Notes: generated by a model not told the origin, from the letters alone. Positions 103 to 9,884 are shown, counted from the stretch's first letter. The stretch is DNA of 10,867 bases from a virus (IMGVR_UViG_2541047874_000002:1-10867), one strand, 5' to 3'. Numbers and translations: made by a program.

Positions 103-414
103 TTATGCTACAGAGGAACAAGCTGGCGGGTAATTCAGCGTAGTGAATACCGGCATCTCCATCTTGTATGCGTAATGATACTCAGCAGTTGCTCCAGCAG
201 ACGCTTTCCAGCCAGGAAGCATCAAAATAGCATCAGCACAACGAAGCATTGCAAAGCAAATATCCATGTATTCACGTTGTGTCAGACCATTAGGCAAAGT
301 GGCTGGATTCAAGACAGAGTGACCATGTCGTGACAAACGATCTGCCTCTTTATTAAAGGCGTCACGATTAAAGTTCTCATATCCAGTCATTGGCCCGGCA
401 ATATAAATTTTCAT
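103..414 (-). CDS. DUF4406 / nucleoside 2-deoxyribosyltransferase-like phage protein
   Basis: 103-aa ORF with N-terminal MKIYIAGPMTGY motif typical of this family (recalled, not searched); ATG at 414; follows the lysis cassette as a moron-like gene. Confidence 0.65.
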   Translation of the reverse strand: MKIYIAGPMTGYENFNRDAFNKEADRLSRHGHSVLNPATLPNGLTQREYMDICFAMLRCADAILMLPGWKASAGATAEYHYAYKMEMPVFTTLNYPPACSSVA

Positions 415-1784: not shown

Positions 1785-2861
1785 TTACTCAAATAACTTT
1801 TTCACTTCATCAACTGTCTGAAGATAACGTTCACCCTCAATCTCAATACCGATTGCCTGACGACCTAACTTCAGCGCGGCTTTAATAGTAGAGCCTGATC
1901 CCATAAAGAAATCGGCAACGATATCTCCGGGGCGGGAACTACTTTTTATAATATGTTCCATCATCGCTGCAGGTTTTTCACATGGGTGCTTGCCAGGATA
2001 ATATTGCACAGGAGGAAACTCCCATACATCGGTATAAGGTACATCAGCAGTAACATGAAATGGGCGGCGCAAATTTTCATACTGAGCCTTCAAATCATCA
2101 TACTGCTTCTTTACTTCCTCATAACGCAATTTCAGATCGCTATAACGCTTTTCATGTTCTGAATAATCAACATTAAAAGGATATGGACACGGGACACCGA
2201 GTGAATCTGCCTTCCTGCGAAATAATTCGCATAGTTTATTAAAATCACTTAATGATGGAAGCCGCCACTGCGAATAAGAAAACCAGTGCGAACACATCTG
2301 CTTTCCTGTTGCTGAATTAATGTCTGCGGCTGATATATCTAACTGACGGCGAGCCAGCGAAAAAGCATCAATTAGTGGAGAAAAAATATTTTTTCTTAAA
2401 TCTGCACATTTTGAAGCATAACCTGACTGACCTTTAGCATAACCTGACGCGCCGTAATGCTCTGCAAATAATATTCTTTCAGTGGCAGGAAAATAAGCCC
2501 TTAAACTTTCTTTATGACAACCGCGCCACATACCACTGGGTTTAGCCCAAATGATATGGTTCAGAACATTGAAACGGTCGCGAGTTAATAATTCAATTTT
2601 TGACGCAAGGCGAGAGCCGGTAAACATATACAGGCTGCCATTAGGGGCCAATATCCGCCAAAATTCTGCCAAAAATTCATCAATCCACCCCAAAAAGTCA
2701 GCATCGCTATCCCACTGGTTATCCCATGCGTTAGCCTTTACGCCGAAGTATGGTGGGTCTGTTGCAATCAAATTGACCGAGTTATCAGGGATGGTTTTGA
2801 TAAATTGCAGAGAATCTGCGCAAACGAGTTGCGCGCCATGAATATTAGTGGTTTTGAACAT
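1785..2861 (-). CDS. Beta-class amino-DNA methyltransferase (N6-adenine or N4-cytosine), orphan
   Basis: DPPY catalytic motif near the N-terminus and FxGxG-type AdoMet motif (DFFMGSGST) near the C-terminus. Start ambiguous: ATG at 2861 (MFKTT...) or ATG at 2906; neither has a strong Shine-Dalgarno. No restriction-endonuclease partner seen. Confidence 0.8.
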   Translation of the reverse strand: MFKTTNIHGAQLVCADSLQFIKTIPDNSVNLIATDPPYFGVKANAWDNQWDSDADFLGWIDEFLAEFWRILAPNGSLYMFTGSRLASKIELLTRDRFNVLNHIIWAKPSGMWRGCHKESLRAYFPATERILFAEHYGASGYAKGQSGYASKCADLRKNIFSPLIDAFSLARRQLDISAADINSATGKQMCSHWFSYSQWRLPSLSDFNKLCELFRRKADSLGVPCPYPFNVDYSEHEKRYSDLKLRYEEVKKQYDDLKAQYENLRRPFHVTADVPYTDVWEFPPVQYYPGKHPCEKPAAMMEHIIKSSSRPGDIVADFFMGSGSTIKAALKLGRQAIGIEIEGERYLQTVDEVKKLFE

Positions 2862-2953
2862 AGCTATTATTTTTTTGCCTGGGTAAGCTAACCCGGCGAT
2901 GCGCATCGCGGGTGGGCTTTAGGTTCAGCCTATAGCTCTGGCATGGGTTGACC

Positions 2954-3756: not shown

Positions 3757-4068
3757 ATGTTTAACGTGATAACCCACCCTGCAGCACTGGATGAACTGCT
3801 TGAACTACCAGATGATTTGCGAGGTCGCATGACCAGATTAATTGAGCGACTGGAGAAGGAAGGCAACAAACTGAAGATGCCCCATAGCCGTGTAATAGGT
3901 GGAGGGCTTTTTGAACTACGAGTAGGGGATAAAAACATCGCAAGAACGCTGTACGCCTACGCGACTGGTAACGAAATTTATCTATTGCATGCATTTGTAA
4001 AAAAGACACAGAAAACACCGGTGAAGGCTATCGAAATCGCCAGAACTCGCCTGAAGGAGATGAACTGA
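3757..4068 (+). CDS. higB: Type II toxin, RelE/ParE superfamily, HigB / Gp49-like
   Basis: 103 aa; C-terminal LYAYATGNEIYLLHAFVKKTQKTP motif characteristic of HigB/Gp49-like toxins (recalled); GGAGG Shine-Dalgarno; toxin-first order; stop overlaps the antitoxin start (TGATG). Confidence 0.8.
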   Translation: MFNVITHPAALDELLELPDDLRGRMTRLIERLEKEGNKLKMPHSRVIGGGLFELRVGDKNIARTLYAYATGNEIYLLHAFVKKTQKTPVKAIEIARTRLKEMN

Positions 4069-4355
4069 TGAAAGCAAAAGGCATCCCGTTTAACGAAGTA
4101 AAGGAAAAACTACTCAACACTCCAGAAGCTATCAAAGGATATGAAGAGGCCGATAAAGAACTGGAGATGGTCGAAATGTTATACGAAATGAGGGAAAGAG
4201 CAGGTTTAACGAAGTCAGCTCTGGCAGAACGAATGGGATTGCGCCCGTCCGCCATCAGCCGCCTGGAAAGCAATCCTTTAGGGGCAAGTATGAAAACTTT
4301 ATCAAAATATGCCCAGGCATGTGGCGCAACAATTAATATTAATGCCGTCTATTGA
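4068..4355 (+). CDS. higA: Type II antitoxin, HTH XRE-family (HigA-like)
   Basis: 95 aa with helix-turn-helix segment (LTKSALAERMGLRPSAISRLE); translationally coupled to the upstream toxin. Confidence 0.8.
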   Translation: MKAKGIPFNEVKEKLLNTPEAIKGYEEADKELEMVEMLYEMRERAGLTKSALAERMGLRPSAISRLESNPLGASMKTLSKYAQACGATININAVY

Positions 4356-4372
4356 TTAATCACTTTTCACTA

Positions 4373-4392
4373 CCCCGTCCAGAAGGGCGGGG
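4373..4392 (+). terminator. Hairpin between convergent genes (putative higBA terminator)
   Basis: CCCCGTCC-AGAA-GGGCGGGG, 8-bp stem with one G-U pair, 18 nt after the higA stop; weak U-tract, so termination efficiency is uncertain. Confidence 0.35.
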
Positions 4393-4398
4393 TGTGTA

Positions 4399-4617
4399 TC
4401 AATGATGTAAACACTCAACAGCAATCGCTTGTTGGCAATTCTGAGCAATCTCCCGCGACATACTAACAAGCCGTGAAATCTCGCCAAGATGCAAGCTAGC
4501 TTCGGGAGAAGCCAGAGCAACGTTAACCAGATCCAAAACGGCGTCGATGTCTTTTAGGTTTGATTCGAGTTCTTCAAGAGTTGATACAGATGCTTCAGTC
4601 ATTGAATCTAATACCAT
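4399..4617 (-). CDS. Small acidic helical protein (72 aa), putatively LexA/SOS-regulated; candidate antirepressor
   Basis: ORF begins 25 nt downstream of a near-consensus LexA box; no strong Shine-Dalgarno (alternative ATG at 4602); function inferred from context only. Confidence 0.5.
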   Translation of the reverse strand: MVLDSMTEASVSTLEELESNLKDIDAVLDLVNVALASPEASLHLGEISRLVSMSREIAQNCQQAIAVECLHH

Positions 4618-4639
4618 TTAATTAAAAAAGGTTATTTGA

Positions 4640-4659
4640 TACTGTATAAAATTACAGGG
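4640..4659. promoter_or_regulatory. LexA (SOS) box TACTGTATAAAATTACAGGG
   Basis: Matches the E. coli LexA consensus TACTGT-(AT)4-ACAGTA at 16 of 20 positions with the CTGT-N8-ACAG core intact; sits immediately upstream of the 4399..4617 gene in an AT-rich intergenic region. Confidence 0.6.
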
Positions 4660-4859
4660 TAAAACTCAAATTTTATAGCCAACTTTCAATGGATTAACTG
4701 GGTTAATAGTTTTGTAGTCAGATATTTATGTTCTCTTCCTACGCCTCACTCAACCACCTACAGAAGCCCATCATCACCATAAGAAAAGCTCTTTTCGCTT
4801 CGTTTGCGTATCATTTCAAAAAGCAATGCCTTTTTATCCATTTATCCCTCCGTGACCAG

Positions 4860-5186
4860 TCACGCTTTGAGCGCAAGTTTCAGCCTCGTGGTTGTAAGGT
4901 GGCATGAGCCTTCACCATCAAAAATGCATTCTGAAACAGGCATTTTTTGACCACATCGCGGACAAGCAGCAGATAGCTGCTTCTGCAACTCCTTATAGTT
5001 TTTCCTGATCAGAAGGCCGATAACTTCATTCTCTGAATATGGGACTCGCCCCGGTCTACGCAATACACAAATTTCCCCCAACATACGTAACTCGTCAGGT
5101 TCCAGAATCCAGTCCCGTCTTGATGTGCCTTCCTTCTTCAACCGTTCCCTGCGTCTCCTTTGCCGTTCTGCCGGTGTCAGCGCCAT
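4860..5186 (-). CDS. Hypothetical basic protein (108 aa) with C-terminal Cys4 zinc-ribbon-like motif
   Basis: AGGAGG Shine-Dalgarno 4 nt upstream of ATG 5186; Arg-rich N-terminus (ERQRRRRERLKKEG); C-terminal CPRCG...C...C. Possible regulator; family not recognised. Confidence 0.55.
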   Translation of the reverse strand: MALTPAERQRRRRERLKKEGTSRRDWILEPDELRMLGEICVLRRPGRVPYSENEVIGLLIRKNYKELQKQLSAACPRCGQKMPVSECIFDGEGSCHLTTTRLKLALKA

Positions 5187-5201
5187 AAATCCTCCTGAAA
5201 A

Positions 5202-5615
5202 TTACTTAACCCAATTAACTACACCGCCAGCGGCCACAACCGCCCTTTCACAGTCACGCTCATATCTCAAAGGTTGAAATACACCATCAATAAAATATTT
5301 ATCTCCACCAAACGCTGCAGGAAGTGAAACAGAAAACTGAATAGGATTATCATCCGGCACCACCGGCAGTGGCTGGGCTACATATAGTGACTGAACATAC
5401 CAGCCCTTTGATAACCAACTGTCAGCAATGTTTTTACTCCGGGTTATTGCCGGAATACCTAAGCCATTGTCTAAATGCAGCCATGCCACCGGTTCTGCTT
5501 CCAGCGAGGCTAACGCTATTTCATAAGCCCGGCGCTCAATATTGTCTCTCACGTCCAGGCTGCCTATGCGCTCTTTGATTTCTTTAATCAGTTCTTTGTC
5601 GGTAAAAGTGCTCAT
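5202..5615 (-). CDS. Hypothetical phage protein, paralog A (shares ALASLEAEPVAW and AQP-P motifs with 5617..6066)
   Basis: 137 aa; AAGGAG Shine-Dalgarno; start 2 nt after the stop of paralog B. Confidence 0.6.
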   Translation of the reverse strand: MSTFTDKELIKEIKERIGSLDVRDNIERRAYEIALASLEAEPVAWLHLDNGLGIPAITRSKNIADSWLSKGWYVQSLYVAQPLPVVPDDNPIQFSVSLPAAFGGDKYFIDGVFQPLRYERDCERAVVAAGGVVNWVK

Positions 5616-5616
5616 A

Positions 5617-6066
5617 TCAATCTCCTTTGGTACCGATATTTACAGCCTGGCAAGCCTCTTTGAGCACCCAGTCAACAGCGTCTTTCCATGCTCCGGTTTC
5701 GACTGGCGGATTTTCACGCTTTACCTGTTCATAGAAACGCACTGCTTTAATCAATCCTTCTGATGTCAGTGGCACAGGCTGAGCCGTGAATAACGCCTGA
5801 ATTTCATAGTTCGGCCTGTCGTTGCAATCCTCTTTTGTCGGTACATATTTCCAGTCACCAACCCACGGCTCCCCCTGAGAGTCCGTTACGCCTTTTTTCA
5901 TGTAGCGATATCGCCACGCTACCGGCTCTGCTTCCAACGATGCCAGCGCGATACGAAACACATCAGCAAGCAGACTGTCTAAAGATTGATTATCGTGCGC
6001 CGGGTCGCTCAGGAAGCCATTGATGAATGATTTAATCTTCGAGCTTTCTCTGGTAATAGTGGTCAT
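5617..6066 (-). CDS. Hypothetical phage protein, paralog B
   Basis: Start reassigned to ATG at 6066 (MTTITRESS...) with AAGGAGAG Shine-Dalgarno; the longer track ORF (to 6228) would overlap the upstream gene. Confidence 0.55.
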   Translation of the reverse strand: MTTITRESSKIKSFINGFLSDPAHDNQSLDSLLADVFRIALASLEAEPVAWRYRYMKKGVTDSQGEPWVGDWKYVPTKEDCNDRPNYEIQALFTAQPVPLTSEGLIKAVRFYEQVKRENPPVETGAWKDAVDWVLKEACQAVNIGTKGD

Positions 6067-6067
6067 A

Positions 6068-6694
6068 TCACTCTCCTTTGCGAAGCTCTGCGGCAAAGTC
6101 AGTCGCATGCTCACCGAGTAGTTTCCAGTTATCGCGTATATCAGATGCAAGCGCCTGTTCGGATTTTGAGTTACATCTCTGTGCAAACATCTCCAATCCC
6201 TGCGCCCGGACTTCAGCCAGGAAAGCATCGGTGGCTGGAATGGGCTTTTGTGGTGATATAGCTATGCGAATTGTCTCAAGGTCTGGATCCGTTTCCGCTG
6301 TTGGCACCTTGATATAACCCATCTGCACCCCATTCATGATGAACCTGCGGCGGTCCTCACACATCACCTTCAGTCTCGCATTCTCCGCCGCCAGCGCCGA
6401 AAACTTCTCGTGTGCCAACTTAACAGCCGAATCAGCCTGCTTAATTGACTCAATCGCTCTCTGGTGGTCTTCAGTCATCGCCGCTAAATTAGCCTCCAGT
6501 TCGGCTATGCGTTCGTTTAATGCATCTCGCTCATCCAACAGAGATAGCGTAATAATCGGTGAATGGCATTGGATATACCGCGTCAGTGTGCGCATATATC
6601 CATCAGCGTTCAAATCATCTTCAAGGCCTGTCCAGTTAATTTTACTGGCGCTCTCAGCTGCTTCACGCAGTACCTGATAATTGATTTCACTCAC
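6068..6694 (-). CDS. Ea22-like family protein (coiled-coil)
   Basis: N-terminus SEINYQVLREAAE and LLDERDALNE resemble recalled lambda Ea22 (MSEINSQALREAAE..., LLDERERNQQ); GTG start at 6694 with AGGAGG Shine-Dalgarno 6 nt upstream, overlapping the upstream stop (GTGA). Confidence 0.7.
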   Translation of the reverse strand: MSEINYQVLREAAESASKINWTGLEDDLNADGYMRTLTRYIQCHSPIITLSLLDERDALNERIAELEANLAAMTEDHQRAIESIKQADSAVKLAHEKFSALAAENARLKVMCEDRRRFIMNGVQMGYIKVPTAETDPDLETIRIAISPQKPIPATDAFLAEVRAQGLEMFAQRCNSKSEQALASDIRDNWKLLGEHATDFAAELRKGE

Positions 6695-7113
6695 AGTACT
6701 ACCTCCTGAAGATTTCCCTGATAAAACGCCAGCACACGCTGCATAACTTCGCTCTTCTGGCAATCGTGACAAATCATGTTCAAGCGCCTGTCGTAACGAC
6801 GTATTTCTCCGTCAGGTAATGACCAGATAAGGTCTGGATCAACCACTACCGATTTCTTCGGCTTTACTCTTGATAGTTTTTTACGGGCGTTTTGCCAGTC
6901 CTTGCGTGCTTGTGCAGACAGAAATATCCCGGAGCCAGAGATATACAAATCACCACTGGCAGCAAGCTCTCTTGATAAACGACTAACAGCACACCGGCTA
7001 ATACCAGTTTCATCCGCAAGTTGCCTAACCGTTCCTCGTCCATTCAGGCGCACGAGTTCCACAATTTGTTTATTCAGTTCTTCCCTCTGTTCTGGTGTAA
7101 AAGCCTTTGCCAT
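6691..7113 (-). CDS. Helix-turn-helix DNA-binding protein (140 aa), hypothetical regulator
   Basis: HTH-like segment (TVRQLADETGISRCAVSRLSRELA); C-terminal CHDC; start overlaps the exonuclease stop (TAATG). Confidence 0.55.
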   Translation of the reverse strand: MAKAFTPEQREELNKQIVELVRLNGRGTVRQLADETGISRCAVSRLSRELAASGDLYISGSGIFLSAQARKDWQNARKKLSRVKPKKSVVVDPDLIWSLPDGEIRRYDRRLNMICHDCQKSEVMQRVLAFYQGNLQEVVL

Positions 7114-7712
7114 TACGATTCTCCTTGCCCTTTTACAAGACGGGAGAAAATTGCGGATACATATTTAGCCTGATGAATAGCATCAGCCAGGGCATTGTGT
7201 CGTTCGCCATCAAATGGCATATCTTTTTTAGGATTAAAACCAATAAACTGACCAAGATTAACGATTGTTCTAACATCCTGATCATTAAAATATTCCCACG
7301 GACAGGCTAAGCCAACGCGCTCATAAACGCCGCGTAAAATTACATTATCGAACGTTGCTCCATTTCCCCATACTTTCAATGTTTTTAAATTACAAGCATG
7401 GCAAGTAATAAAGTGTGATAATTCAAAAAGTGCATCCTTAATATCAAGGGCATCATTAGTACAAATTGCGGCTCTGGCTTCCTTGCTCTGTCGCAACCAC
7501 CATAAAATGGTATCACCATCGGCAACACCACCATTTAACATCGAGCTTCTGAGATTCACTGGTACATAAAAAGTGGCACCTAATTCCTCACTTTCTGGAG
7601 AAAAAAACACTGCCCCGATAGAAACAATTGGAGCACATGTATTAGTACCCATTGTTTCAAGGTCAATCATTACATCAGACCGTTTCCTGTCGTAAATAAT
7701 CTGATTAGTCAC
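7113..7712 (-). CDS. DEDD-family 3'-5' exonuclease (DnaQ-like, phage-type)
   Basis: N-terminal MIDLETMGT Exo I motif and C-terminal H-x4-D (HNALADAIH) motif; GTG start at 7712 with GAGGAG Shine-Dalgarno (alternative ATG at 7670). Confidence 0.7.
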   Translation of the reverse strand: MTNQIIYDRKRSDVMIDLETMGTNTCAPIVSIGAVFFSPESEELGATFYVPVNLRSSMLNGGVADGDTILWWLRQSKEARAAICTNDALDIKDALFELSHFITCHACNLKTLKVWGNGATFDNVILRGVYERVGLACPWEYFNDQDVRTIVNLGQFIGFNPKKDMPFDGERHNALADAIHQAKYVSAIFSRLVKGQGES

Positions 7713-7735
7713 GAATAATTCTCCTCAATGTTTAT

Positions 7736-7939
7736 CTATGCCCAAAACTTCTGTTGATATGTTCTGGATGGTTTTGGCGCTCTTTCTGATTCAGGTAAAT
7801 GAACATAAACGCAATATCCATCACCTAAAAAATCAGAACGAACAACCAGAACTTTCTTACCACGCCGCCGATAAGTATCTGAAAGACGCTCTGCTTCATC
7901 ATGCGTCATCGGCCCCTGTTTAAATGGCGTTATTTTCAT
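7736..7939 (-). CDS. Hypothetical small protein (about 67 aa)
   Basis: First ATG at 7939; the track ORF starts at a GTG inside the palindrome at 7963; no family recognised. Confidence 0.4.
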   Translation of the reverse strand: MKITPFKQGPMTHDEAERLSDTYRRRGKKVLVVRSDFLGDGYCVYVHLPESERAPKPSRTYQQKFWA

Positions 7940-8240
7940 TTTCTTGTGCGACCACGGTCGCACCCTCTCTGATTTCCAAGTAACGCTTAATCCAAAGATT
8001 TTCTATATGCTTATTACCTGGCTGATTTGATAAATACCAATCGGCAATTACAGACTGCTTATTACTATCTGGTCGTGTCCTGTAACCACAAGTTGGACAC
8101 CAAATAACATATTCATTTCTTACCCCCGAATACCTTAATTCTGGCTTCGACGGTTTCCTGAACATAACTTGTTTACAAAGGCAGAATGGCACTTCCTGCC
8201 CGATGGCGTTTGATGATTTCACTGCGCTTCTCCGCCGCAT
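7920..8240 (-). CDS. Small zinc-ribbon protein, possibly Lar-family restriction-alleviation-like
   Basis: CxC...CPTCG cysteine pairs (FCLC, CPTCG) about 22 aa apart; ATG at 8240 overlaps the upstream gene by 68 nt, so the start is uncertain (alternative ATG 8165 would lose the first Cys pair). Confidence 0.4.
   Translation of the reverse strand: MRRRSAVKSSNAIGQEVPFCLCKQVMFRKPSKPELRYSGVRNEYVIWCPTCGYRTRPDSNKQSVIADWYLSNQPGNKHIENLWIKRYLEIREGATVVAQENENNAI
7945..7963. repeat. Copy 3 of dispersed near-palindrome (TGTGCGACCACGGTCGCAC), overlapping the 3' end of the Lar-like ORF and 6 nt upstream of the 7939 ATG
   Basis: Read directly; on the coding (minus) strand it is read in frame as A-T-V-V-A-Q. 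Confidence 0.9.
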
Positions 8241-8883
8241 TTAATAATGCGGTTCGATTTAAGCTCAGACATCGCGACTTAATTAAAAGCCAGCGTTCTT
8301 TATAATCTTGTCTCCAGCTATCAATAGATATATTCAGTAGAAAACTCAGATGCCTGTCCTGTTCTCTCTCATCAACTGCCTCAGCACACGTAAGTTCTGA
8401 TTTAACCTGTTGTGCCGCGTAATAAATCAATTTCCGCATGGCTTTTTTCGTGGAGGCCTTCATTTTTTTAAAGCCGCCCCCCGAATGAGCAACCAGAAAA
8501 TCAAGCCATAACCACTGACAAACAATCACATCATTGTTGTAATCAGGCTTGCATCCGTAGCAATAATAAAGCCAGGCTGATTCCTCGTTATTCAACTGAC
8601 CAATAGCCCTGCGCCAGCTGGCGCTCTGAAAATCAATATCAGTGAGCAACATTGATGATTGTTTAAATGTTTTCCCCTGATGGAATCTAACCGGCTCAGC
8701 AGGAACGGACACTTCGTATGAGTTATCATCCCCCACACTGATTGACCGGACTGGTTTATTGTTAAACCGTCCTGATCTACCGAGACGCATCTGCTCAAGC
8801 TGGACCTCCAGAATGCCACGCTGGCGATAATGAACATCAGCCAATGCCGTAGAGACGCAGCTGCGTATATACTCAAGCTCCAC
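8173..8883 (-). CDS. Hypothetical early protein (236 aa from GTG 8883; alternative ATG 8790)
   Basis: Long ORF immediately downstream of the cro-like gene; contains CYGC; function not recognisable by eye (replication or regulatory role possible). Confidence 0.5.
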   Translation of the reverse strand: MELEYIRSCVSTALADVHYRQRGILEVQLEQMRLGRSGRFNNKPVRSISVGDDNSYEVSVPAEPVRFHQGKTFKQSSMLLTDIDFQSASWRRAIGQLNNEESAWLYYCYGCKPDYNNDVIVCQWLWLDFLVAHSGGGFKKMKASTKKAMRKLIYYAAQQVKSELTCAEAVDEREQDRHLSFLLNISIDSWRQDYKERWLLIKSRCLSLNRTALLNAAEKRSEIIKRHRAGSAILPL

Positions 8884-9094
8884 GCTTACGACTCTCCTTA
8901 ATCGACTGCTTTACCCGCCGAGTTGTAAAGTCACTCTTCAGCTTATAAGCAGTACGAACTTCAATATCGCTTTGCCGCAATGAAGGAATCTCTCCAGCGG
9001 TTAACCATTGGTAAACAGCTCCGGGTGTTACACCTACCCCTGCCGCTGCTTTTTCTACACTGCCAAAATGGCGAATAAGTTCTTCTGGTTTCAT
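8873..9094 (-). CDS. cro: Cro-like repressor (P22 Cro-type HTH)
   Basis: MKPEELIRHFGSVEKAAAGVGVTPGAVYQW resembles recalled P22 Cro (DVIDHFGTQRAVAKALGISDAAVSQW); divergent from the CI-like gene across an operator-rich region. No obvious Shine-Dalgarno. Confidence 0.7.
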   Translation of the reverse strand: MKPEELIRHFGSVEKAAAGVGVTPGAVYQWLTAGEIPSLRQSDIEVRTAYKLKSDFTTRRVKQSIKESRKRGA

Positions 9095-9185
9095 GTTGTT
9101 ATTATAAACAATAAACAACAATTAAAGCCAGCTATAATAAATAAATTTTATAGCCAGCTATAAGAAGATCATTTATGATTACAGT
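9095..9185. promoter_or_regulatory. Immunity-region divergent promoter/operator segment
   Basis: Direct repeat of GCCAGCTATAA (9127-9137, 9153-9163); 16-bp near-palindrome TTATAGCCAGCTATAA (9148-9163) and half-related TTAAAGCCAGCTATAA (9122-9137); TTGTT...AACAA repeats at 9096-9120. The CI-like ATG has no Shine-Dalgarno, so a leaderless mRNA is possible. Confidence 0.55.
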
Positions 9186-9782
9186 ATGAAAACACGAGGC
9201 GAACGACTGAAAGCACGCCGTTTAGAGATGAAGCTGACGTTGCGAGAAGTTGCTGAGGCTGTCGATATCTCTATAGCAGGCGTCCAAAACTTAGAACGTG
9301 GCGACGTAATGCCGTCACTGGAGATAGGTATTGCCCTGGCTAAGTGCTTACGCAAGCCAGTGCATTGGGTGCTATATGGGACAGAATATGACCCTGATCG
9401 CATTCCTGTTATTGGCACAACTGAAAGTGGGCCGGATGAAGAGTGGAAGCCGGGACAGGTTCCAAATACTGAGCGATTCCTGCCATTCATCAGCCAGCGC
9501 AATACTGTGTATGCGTTAACTATCAGCAATCTTACGCAGGGAAACTATCAGCCAGGCGATTTTCTCCTGGTCGATTCTGCGCTGGAACTGGTCCCCGGCG
9601 AGGATGTTCTGGTTCGTGATACTGCAGGAAATATCACTATCCAGCGCCTGGCCCGTTTTGATGATGAAAATTACTATCTGGATGGAACAAACTCACAACG
9701 CGCCATCTTCAGGAAAAGCGATCTTGAATTTGTTCACCAAATAGTCGGAACGATCAAATCATTCATGGTTGAGGGTAGATGA
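9186..9782 (+). CDS. CI-like prophage repressor: N-terminal XRE HTH plus LexA/S24-like C-terminal domain with apparently degenerate catalytic Lys
   Basis: 198 aa; HTH (LTLREVAEAVDISIAGVQNLERG); C-terminal PGDFLLVD...NITIQRL aligns by eye with LexA GDLLAV...VTVKRL but has Gln where the catalytic Lys would be. Confidence 0.75.
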   Translation: MKTRGERLKARRLEMKLTLREVAEAVDISIAGVQNLERGDVMPSLEIGIALAKCLRKPVHWVLYGTEYDPDRIPVIGTTESGPDEEWKPGQVPNTERFLPFISQRNTVYALTISNLTQGNYQPGDFLLVDSALELVPGEDVLVRDTAGNITIQRLARFDDENYYLDGTNSQRAIFRKSDLEFVHQIVGTIKSFMVEGR

Positions 9783-9884
9783 CTTAATACGGGGTTTATT
9801 GTTTGCTGTAAATCTGGTTTAATGCAGGGCATATGTTCTGTGGGTTGACTCAGGTTACAGCAGCAGAAAAAAGACGAAAAAAAA

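Follow-up and report, generated by a model that had tools for sequence, protein, structure and literature searches.

How a prophage can be induced when its repressor appears no longer able to cleave itself is the question raised by a stretch of viral DNA, IMGVR_UViG_2541047874_000002:1-10867, the whole of which (10,867 nucleotides) is referred to here as the window. A first-pass annotation had read a LexA box, a small acidic gene beside it, and a CI-like repressor lacking the catalytic lysine as an SOS-controlled antirepressor circuit. That logic is supported by the presence of homologues of both components of the AntC/CB system of phage N15, by the same gene order, and by a conserved LexA box, and it is very probable that the window carries an N15-type AntC/CB SOS antirepressor switch. 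As such the system is known: the circuit is the already-published AntC/CB switch, reportedly worked out in N15 by Mardanov & Ravin in 2007, in a close N15 relative. What is left as new is the allelic diversity of AntC against a constant CB, a homologue without a LexA box in a more distant contig (L073), and the missing database annotation. The features concerned are these:

4399..4602, minus strand: putative antC homologue, encoding a 67-aa acidic protein with a predicted two-helix hairpin (tblastn match to N15 39604-39807, phrog_6301, conserved ATG)
4640..4659, minus strand: LexA (SOS) box, reading CCCTGTAATTTTATACAGTA on the antC coding strand
4641..4669, minus strand: putative antC promoter, with -35 TTGAGT at 4664-4669, a 17-nt spacer, and -10 TACAGT at 4641-4646
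9186..9782, plus strand: cB prophage repressor, with an N-terminal helix-turn-helix (HTH) and a degenerate LexA/CI-like C-terminal domain (78% identity to N15 CB)

When the small protein was compared by tblastn with 50,697 phage records, 13 matched, all of them N15-like, including N15, phiKO2, YDC107_1, PhiR46_1, an Enterobacter Ravinvirus, and Klebsiella telomere phages. Extending the search to E values of up to 10 brought only two additions, chance matches at E = 2 in an Agrobacterium phage. The N15 match is at 39604-39807, with 54% identity over 68 aa (E = 1e-16), and the small protein and the product of this N15 open reading frame (ORF) are 52-54% identical overall. NC_001901.1 has no gene annotated in this interval, which is flanked by gene 47 on one side and by the convergent HTH/RelE pair, genes 48 and 49, on the other; the N15 sequence is CCCTGTGTTTATATACAGTA, followed by an ORF starting MVYDSMTDAAVS. 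The window and N15 proteins both belong to phrog_6301 and phrog_10889, and the order of gene 47, antC, and the convergent 48-49 pair is shared by the window, N15, phiKO2, KpLi5, YDC107_1, pAH01-1, and pG749_3.

A census of the whole N15 genome found three CTGT-N8-ACAG sites, the first of which has a G+C-rich spacer and is inside the tape-measure gene. The other two, the only plausible LexA boxes, are before the umuD-like gene 26 and before the ORF at 39604-39807. Because the only other plausible box precedes gene 26, the N15 ORF would by elimination, and by secondary citations, be antC, which we take to lie between genes 47 and 48. The gene 26 site, outside the window, is itself a good LexA box (CTGTATAAAAAAACAG, N15 21660-21675, 17 nt before the gene), and with it at least two phage-plasmid genes are placed under the host SOS regulon.

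In PMC3121763 and PMC11652158, N15 AntC is described as a LexA-controlled antirepressor, like Tum. It is stated to act against CB (Mardanov & Ravin 2007, J Bacteriol 189:6333, as cited in PMC3121763, PMC4488713, PMC11652158, and PMC10432266), and in PMC4488713 it is reported to bind CB and relieve repression. Among the phage records, the 13 with AntC are exactly the 13 that have a CB at least 76% identical to that of the window, while PY54 and P840, in which CB is 33-40% identical, have no AntC match.

These observations bear on whether the small protein might be SOS-induced and yet not an antirepressor, being instead a DinI-like RecA modulator, a division inhibitor, or a toxin, with CB inactivated otherwise, for example by immA AntA/AntB of N15-like phages, outside the window. 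There is no curated family from which to argue: searches of Pfam and NCBIfam with the small protein gave no match, and its database names are all "hypothetical protein". The AlphaFold (AF2) model, with helices at 3-30 and 39-66 and a predicted local distance difference test (pLDDT) score of 84, is a generic helical hairpin, for which Foldseek against the PDB returned only other such hairpins, at E values of at least 2.4. N15 also has a second anti-immunity locus (PMC4488713). Against this, the protein is homologous to the sole N15 ORF with a plausible LexA box besides gene 26, whose product acts against CB in the literature as cited above; its occurrence is that of N15-type CB exactly in the phage collection; and it has no DinI domain and no similarity to Tum/DinI. 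Its strongest match, to phrog_6301 (6e-35), is to a family of unknown function, but there is a weaker one (7.5e-7) to phrog_10889, which is annotated "anti-repressor". A role other than that of an antirepressor is thus unlikely, and an N15-type AntC remains the preferred identity. In the alignment and AF2 model an invariant SPEASLH motif occupies the loop of AntC and DAVLD lies on helix 1. The family is small, since an exhaustive HMMER search recovered only seven cluster representatives; one of these, P0103, is a protein of 1588 aa with 14 matched stretches.

The LexA box itself has held up well. The palindrome TACTGTATAAAATTACAGGG at 4640-4659 is the sole CTGT-N8-ACAG in the 10.9-kb window, where 0.10 would be expected by chance, and the stricter CTGT-W8-ACAGTA is contained in 0 of 200 shuffles. 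It matches the LexA consensus (TACTGTATATATATACAGTA) at 15 of 20 positions, with CTGT and ACAG exact and a spacer that is all A/T; because it carries five mismatches, a search of the window with the 20-bp consensus at up to three mismatches had no match. The box is conserved in relatives, as an exact CTGT-N8-ACAG is present 36-40 nt upstream of the conserved ATG in 53 out of 53 further related loci (2 from one-genome-per-species contigs and 51 from IMG/VR viral contigs). When 55 loci are collapsed to 23 distinct upstream sequences, the box is kept in 22, the exception being phiKO2, with ATGT in one half.

Five mismatches within A/T-rich intergenic DNA, with the CB half-operator-like GGCTATAA just upstream (though unconserved in relatives), might be taken to mean that the palindrome is a chance match, or that it is a site for a phage protein instead of LexA. 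The exact half-sites at N8 spacing and the empty shuffles speak against either, as does the persistence of the position and half-sites of the box though the flanking DNA and the AntC proteins diverge to ~50% identity. The box before tum in phage 186, at p95, is built alike and is annotated with a similar overlap of LexA box and -10. The likelihood that this is anything other than a LexA box is therefore very slight.

The putative -10 of the antC promoter, TACAGT, sits within the promoter-proximal half of the LexA box. Across the 23 distinct upstream sequences TTTG and TATACAGTAT keep a fixed spacing, with conservation of 90% or more, and TTG-17 nt-TACAGT is invariant, so that the position of the promoter is suggested by comparison between relatives. 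With the predicted -10 inside it, the box shows the LexA-box-over-promoter arrangement of an N15-type AntC. Directly upstream of the putative -35, the sequence TTATAGCCAACTTTCA at 4673-4688 includes a single CB half-operator without mismatch, which reads GGCTATAA on the antC strand. Control of antC by CB through this sequence was considered and rejected, as it is a half-site only, and the match is probably due to chance because it is not conserved in YDC107_1 or N15.

The acidic gene beside the box had been given as 72 aa and 25 nt away. The acidic ORF is present (4399..4617, minus strand; 72 aa, isoelectric point 4.3, 12 D/E versus 3 K/R), but the gap from the box to its first ATG, at 4617, is 22 nt, and the conserved start is the second ATG, at 4602, which is 37 nt from the box and gives 67 aa. 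At the position of the first ATG, YDC107_1 and pG749_3 read ATG-GTA-TGA, so that translation would end after "MV"; phiKO2 and KpLi5 lack a start codon there (CTG or CGG). The second ATG is common to all of the relatives compared, as well as being ATG in 53 of the 53 further loci, and the RefSeq annotation is of the 67-aa form. Given the lack of conservation of the first ATG, the retention of the second in all 53 loci, and the RefSeq form, the antC gene is most likely 4399..4602, starting at the second ATG. It is followed by:

4368..4396, minus strand: G+C-rich hairpin immediately 3' of antC, within the 43 nt that separate its stop codon from the convergent antitoxin gene

The RNA fold of this hairpin is -20.6 kcal/mol (z = -3.96), 0 of 200 shuffles fold as well, and there is no clear U-tract; it is likely to be a terminator.

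The repressor of this putative switch, CB, has 78% identity to its N15 counterpart and 100% to the CB of YDC107_1. Pfam HTH_3 is matched at E = 3e-11, while Peptidase_S24 (PF00717) reaches 21.3 bits, below the cut-off of 23.3. Because phmmer against PDB sequences found only the HTH domain at a significant E (UmuD, E ~0.7), a fold search was needed to reveal the S24-like domain that had been assigned to this protein. For the AF2 model (pLDDT 88) the best Foldseek matches are lambda CI (8e-7), a lambda-186 hybrid, 186 CI, LexA, and UmuD, with E values for lambda CI, 186 CI, and LexA ranging from 8e-7 to 6e-5.

In MAFFT alignments of CB with E. coli LexA and UmuD (MG1655), lambda CI (reference records), and N15 CB, the CB sequence ITIQRL, identical in N15, aligns with VTVKRL, FTFKKL, and FTVKKL. 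This puts Gln at the position of the catalytic Lys (LexA K156), as the first-pass annotation had claimed in suggesting that autocleavage was probably lost. The loss is larger than was then noted. The GxSM motif of the Ser nucleophile (LexA S119) is gone, being ISNLTQ in the window and VGNQIQ in N15 versus GMSM, GNSM, or GDSM in LexA, CI, and UmuD, and so no Ser-Lys dyad is present in CB. The Ala-Gly cleavage site is also gone, replaced by Ser-Gly in the window (TTESGP) and Thr-Gly in N15 (TTETGP) versus VAAGEP in LexA. CB therefore has the fold of a self-cleaving S24 protein and lacks three of its four features (Ser, Lys, and an Ala-Gly or Cys-Gly bond); the model suggests that the LexA/CI fold was kept and the chemistry lost. 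Without Ala-Gly, Ser, and Lys, CB would not be inactivated by RecA-stimulated self-cleavage.

Other repressors retain all or part of what CB lacks. In the same alignment those of Vibrio telomere phages keep AG (TQAGPD), GDSM or GNSM, and K; those of PY54 and P840 keep K with Ala in place of Ser; and a database homologue at 42% identity to CB still has AGPD, GDSM, and VKRL. Among closer relatives of CB the Lys column holds Q, Y, F, M, L, or G. All 46 full-length CB copies located 3.2-6 kb from AntC carry Q in the Lys column, lack the Ser motif, and have S/T-G for A-G. The fact that the Lys column varies freely, while the relative at 42% identity keeps AG, GDSM, and VKRL, supports an active site that, as read from the alignments, is dead and has since drifted.

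It might still be argued that CB is cleaved or degraded during the SOS response by a non-canonical route, through other catalytic residues or a host protease, with the LexA-box gene as an accessory. The C-terminal domain does keep the LexA/CI fold and there is a Ser-Gly dipeptide left at the former cleavage position. However, the residues in the Ser and Lys columns are non-catalytic, with the drift of the Lys column being that of a dead active site, and the N15 repressor, which shares ITIQRL and 78% identity with CB, is not proteolysed under SOS conditions brought on by ciprofloxacin (Silpe et al. 2023, PMC10432266). Cleavage of CB by such a route is highly improbable, and inactivation by AntC is the favoured explanation. 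The operators and genes on which CB would act are:

9122..9163: operator region (OR) in the cB-cro interval, a pair of 16-bp near-palindromes
9796..9835: stretch between cB and repA that, by alignment to N15 34030-34125, is a possible counterpart of the second CB operator annotated in N15
8873..9094, minus strand: cro-like lytic repressor (Pfam P22_Cro, E = 2.5e-22), first gene of the CB-silenced operon
8173..8883, minus strand: Q-like antiterminator (Pfam Phage_antiter_Q, E = 4e-84), downstream of cro in the derepressed operon

The near-palindromes in OR, TTAAAGCCAGCTATAA (9122-9137) and TTATAGCCAGCTATAA (9148-9163), align with the block annotated in N15 as "CB prophage repressor operator", and one operator is identical to that of N15. 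At 9796-9811 there is a degenerate operator-like site, a pattern match with three mismatches, and the case for 9796..9835 as a second CB operator region is weak. The cro ORF runs on to a TTG at 9121; the 73-aa form in the RefSeq annotation of pAH01-1 corresponds to a start at the ATG at 9094.

Lysogeny would then be held by CB, a lambda-CI-shaped repressor unable to self-cleave. In an undamaged cell the host LexA would occupy 4640-4659, across the spacer and -10 of the antC promoter, keeping antC off. DNA damage would activate RecA and lead to the self-cleavage of LexA, upon which AntC would be made, bind CB, and remove it from the OR and OL operators, so that the cro-Q early operon would be derepressed. 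The antC gene is co-oriented with this operon, which runs from cro and Q to gene 46, and no terminator between them was detected in a scan of 4300-4900. Because of the shared orientation and the lack of a detected terminator, read-through from the early operon into antC could follow derepression and reinforce induction by positive feedback.

Several points weigh against an N15-type switch in the window and need to be set beside the evidence for it. Identity of AntC to its N15 counterpart is only 52-54%, and the CB loop that replaces the Ser motif differs from that in N15 (ISNLTQGN versus VGNQIQRN). That this allele would behave as the N15 allele does is an extrapolation from sequence. The assignment of the N15 ORF as antC is itself owed to elimination and secondary citations rather than to an annotation. 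The putative promoter is weak by consensus, its hexamers agreeing with σ70 at 8 of 12 positions, and because of this poor fit a promoter and terminator scan of window 4300-4900 called nothing. In the more distant contig L073 there is no CTGT-N8-ACAG upstream of the AntC homologue.

L073 (IMGVR_UViG_3300036791_000702) is N15-like and carries a distant AntC homologue, P0106, in the region 7431-8210. Its CB homologue is 54% identical, with Leu at the Lys position and no Ser. The absence of a LexA box before this homologue means that LexA control is not universal in the wider AntC family. Just upstream, on the opposite strand, an ORF of 106 aa includes a segment resembling an HTH, and the locus has no RelE/HTH pair. 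By analogy, the SOS input may here have been exchanged for another transcription factor, in a manner reminiscent of the transcription factor-small ORF (TF-smORF) modules of Silpe et al. 2023.

Within the closer relatives, AntC is far more diverged from its N15 counterpart than is CB (52-54% versus 78% identity). The antC segment, window 4300-4770, is ~81% identical to that of the YDC107_1-type elements (YDC107_1 and pG749_3), with the rest of the window ~98% identical; at the protein level AntC is 75-78% identical to theirs, while CB is 100% identical. The lower identity of the antC segment, beside ~98% elsewhere and an unchanged CB, would suggest that recombination has swapped the antC allele independently of the repressor that it targets. 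Indeed, one CB (99.5-100% identical) is found beside two AntC alleles that are 76-78% identical to one another, and the CB that accompanies the N15-type AntC (~52% identical) has most of its differences in the C-terminal domain. It is possible, if doubtful, that AntC alleles define cross-reacting and non-cross-reacting induction groups among co-resident N15-like plasmids, a "crosstalk" in the style of Gifsy, and that distant relatives such as L073 have swapped the LexA input for a neighbouring transcription factor. No description of allele-group crosstalk or of an input swap of the L073 type was found for the N15 AntC family.

As to the element itself, by megablast the window is 98% identical over 87% of its length to Escherichia phage YDC107_1 (genus Ravinvirus), and the immunity region of N15 and phiKO2 is ~75% identical. 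Matches to the antC segment (window 4300-4800) among complete E. coli genomes are on plasmids only, of 36-75 kb and mostly ~46 kb. One of these relatives, plasmid pAH01-1, has the full N15 layout in its RefSeq annotation, with lambda-like structural genes and the large 4-kb RepA. The YDC107_1 and N15 matches, the plasmid-only occurrence, and the pAH01-1 layout identify the source of the window, on sequence similarity, as an N15-like linear phage-plasmid.

From the six-frame ORF list and family scans, the window is the early and lysis region of a temperate phage, reading right to left. At the right end is the start of a very large replication gene, and then the CI-like repressor at 9186-9782 on the plus strand. 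Leftward of the repressor are the divergent P22-Cro-like gene, the Q antiterminator, a 3'-5' exonuclease, DUF977/Ren-like and Ead/Ea22-like genes, and several small genes; further left come the antC ORF, a convergent RelE/HTH toxin-antitoxin pair, a DNA methylase, and the lysis cassette. Those to the left of antC include:

3757-4068, plus strand: RelE/ParE-like toxin (103 aa), equivalent to N15 gene 49
4068-4355, plus strand: HTH antitoxin (95 aa), equivalent to N15 gene 48
1785-2906, minus strand: DNA methyltransferase (373 aa), between the lysis genes and the toxin-antitoxin pair, the same arrangement as in pAH01-1
103-414, minus strand: DUF4406 (nucleoside deoxyribosyltransferase-like) gene beside the lysis cassette, from the ORF list and comparison with pAH01-1

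The toxin and antitoxin ORFs (3757-4355), identified from the annotations of N15, phiKO2, YDC107_1, and pAH01-1, overlap by one base and are convergent with antC. The pair is outside the circuit and is usable as a synteny marker; presumably it is a plasmid-addiction module of the phage-plasmid. On the other side of antC, at window 4740-4830 on the minus strand, the homologue of N15 gene 47 is cut to ~27 codons (MDKKALLFEMIRKRSEKSFSYGDDGLL, then a stop), and ~80 bp that are present in YDC107_1 and pG749_3 at window ~4765-4770 are missing from the window and pAH01-1.

The practical value of these observations is in an annotation gap. The antC gene of N15 is missing from NC_001901.1, Pfam and NCBIfam have no family model, and AntC homologues looked up in NCBI, UniRef, and IMG are all named "hypothetical protein", "putative gp47", or "Gp47". 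With neither annotation nor a family model to draw on, automated pipelines overlook the switch by which these Enterobacterales phage-plasmids, a common family, are induced. It could be labelled correctly by a simple rule (a small protein with the SPEASLH motif, behind a CTGT-N8-ACAG box and beside a RelE/HTH pair), and the rule would mark such plasmids as SOS-inducible, and hence quinolone-inducible.

Of the known systems, the closest is N15 AntC/CB, in which both of the window proteins have homologues (AntC 52-54%, CB 78%). The series of gene 46, gene 47, LexA box, antC, and the convergent HTH/RelE pair is shared, with cB-cro-Q ~4.6 kb away. The LexA box and TTG-17-TACAGT promoter are in the same place, ITIQRL is present in both CB proteins, and the OR operators are conserved, one being identical. 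The window differs in having an AntC that is much more diverged than CB, the CB loop SNLTQG versus GNQIQR in N15, and a gene 47 homologue shortened by the ~80-bp deletion.

The first-pass annotation had cited Tum and the Gifsy prophages as precedents. The functional analogy stands, but homology of AntC to the Tum or Gifsy antirepressors was rejected at hhalign probabilities of 0.2% and 0.3%, respectively, and the direct precedent is N15 AntC. In phage 186, as in the window, a LexA box lies over the -10 of the antirepressor promoter, p95, and the 186 CI, lambda-CI-like yet uncleaved, is one of the structures that the CB model resembles most. Besides the lack of detectable homology to AntC, Tum differs in being 146 aa with a DinI-like half, where AntC is a 67-aa helical hairpin without a DinI domain. 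For Gifsy the comparison was with STM1020.1n of Gifsy-2, the ORF after dinI, which we take to be gftA; the PHROG families also differ (4847 versus 6301). Gifsy repressors are short and DicA/RacR-like, without an S24-like domain, and the Gifsy LexA box precedes a dinI-antirepressor operon. The likeness is that GfoA, GftA, and GfhA are directly LexA-controlled antirepressors of ~70 aa that are encoded outside the immunity region and bind a non-cleaved repressor (Lemire et al. 2011, PMC3121763).

With lambda CI, LexA, and UmuD, CB shares the two-domain architecture and the C-terminal fold, and like lambda CI it is a master prophage repressor with a divergent cro and multiple operators. The difference is in the absence of Ala-Gly, Ser, and Lys from CB, and since these determinants of cleavage are lacking, the SOS signal would enter the circuit through LexA and AntC rather than through RecA-stimulated cleavage of the repressor.

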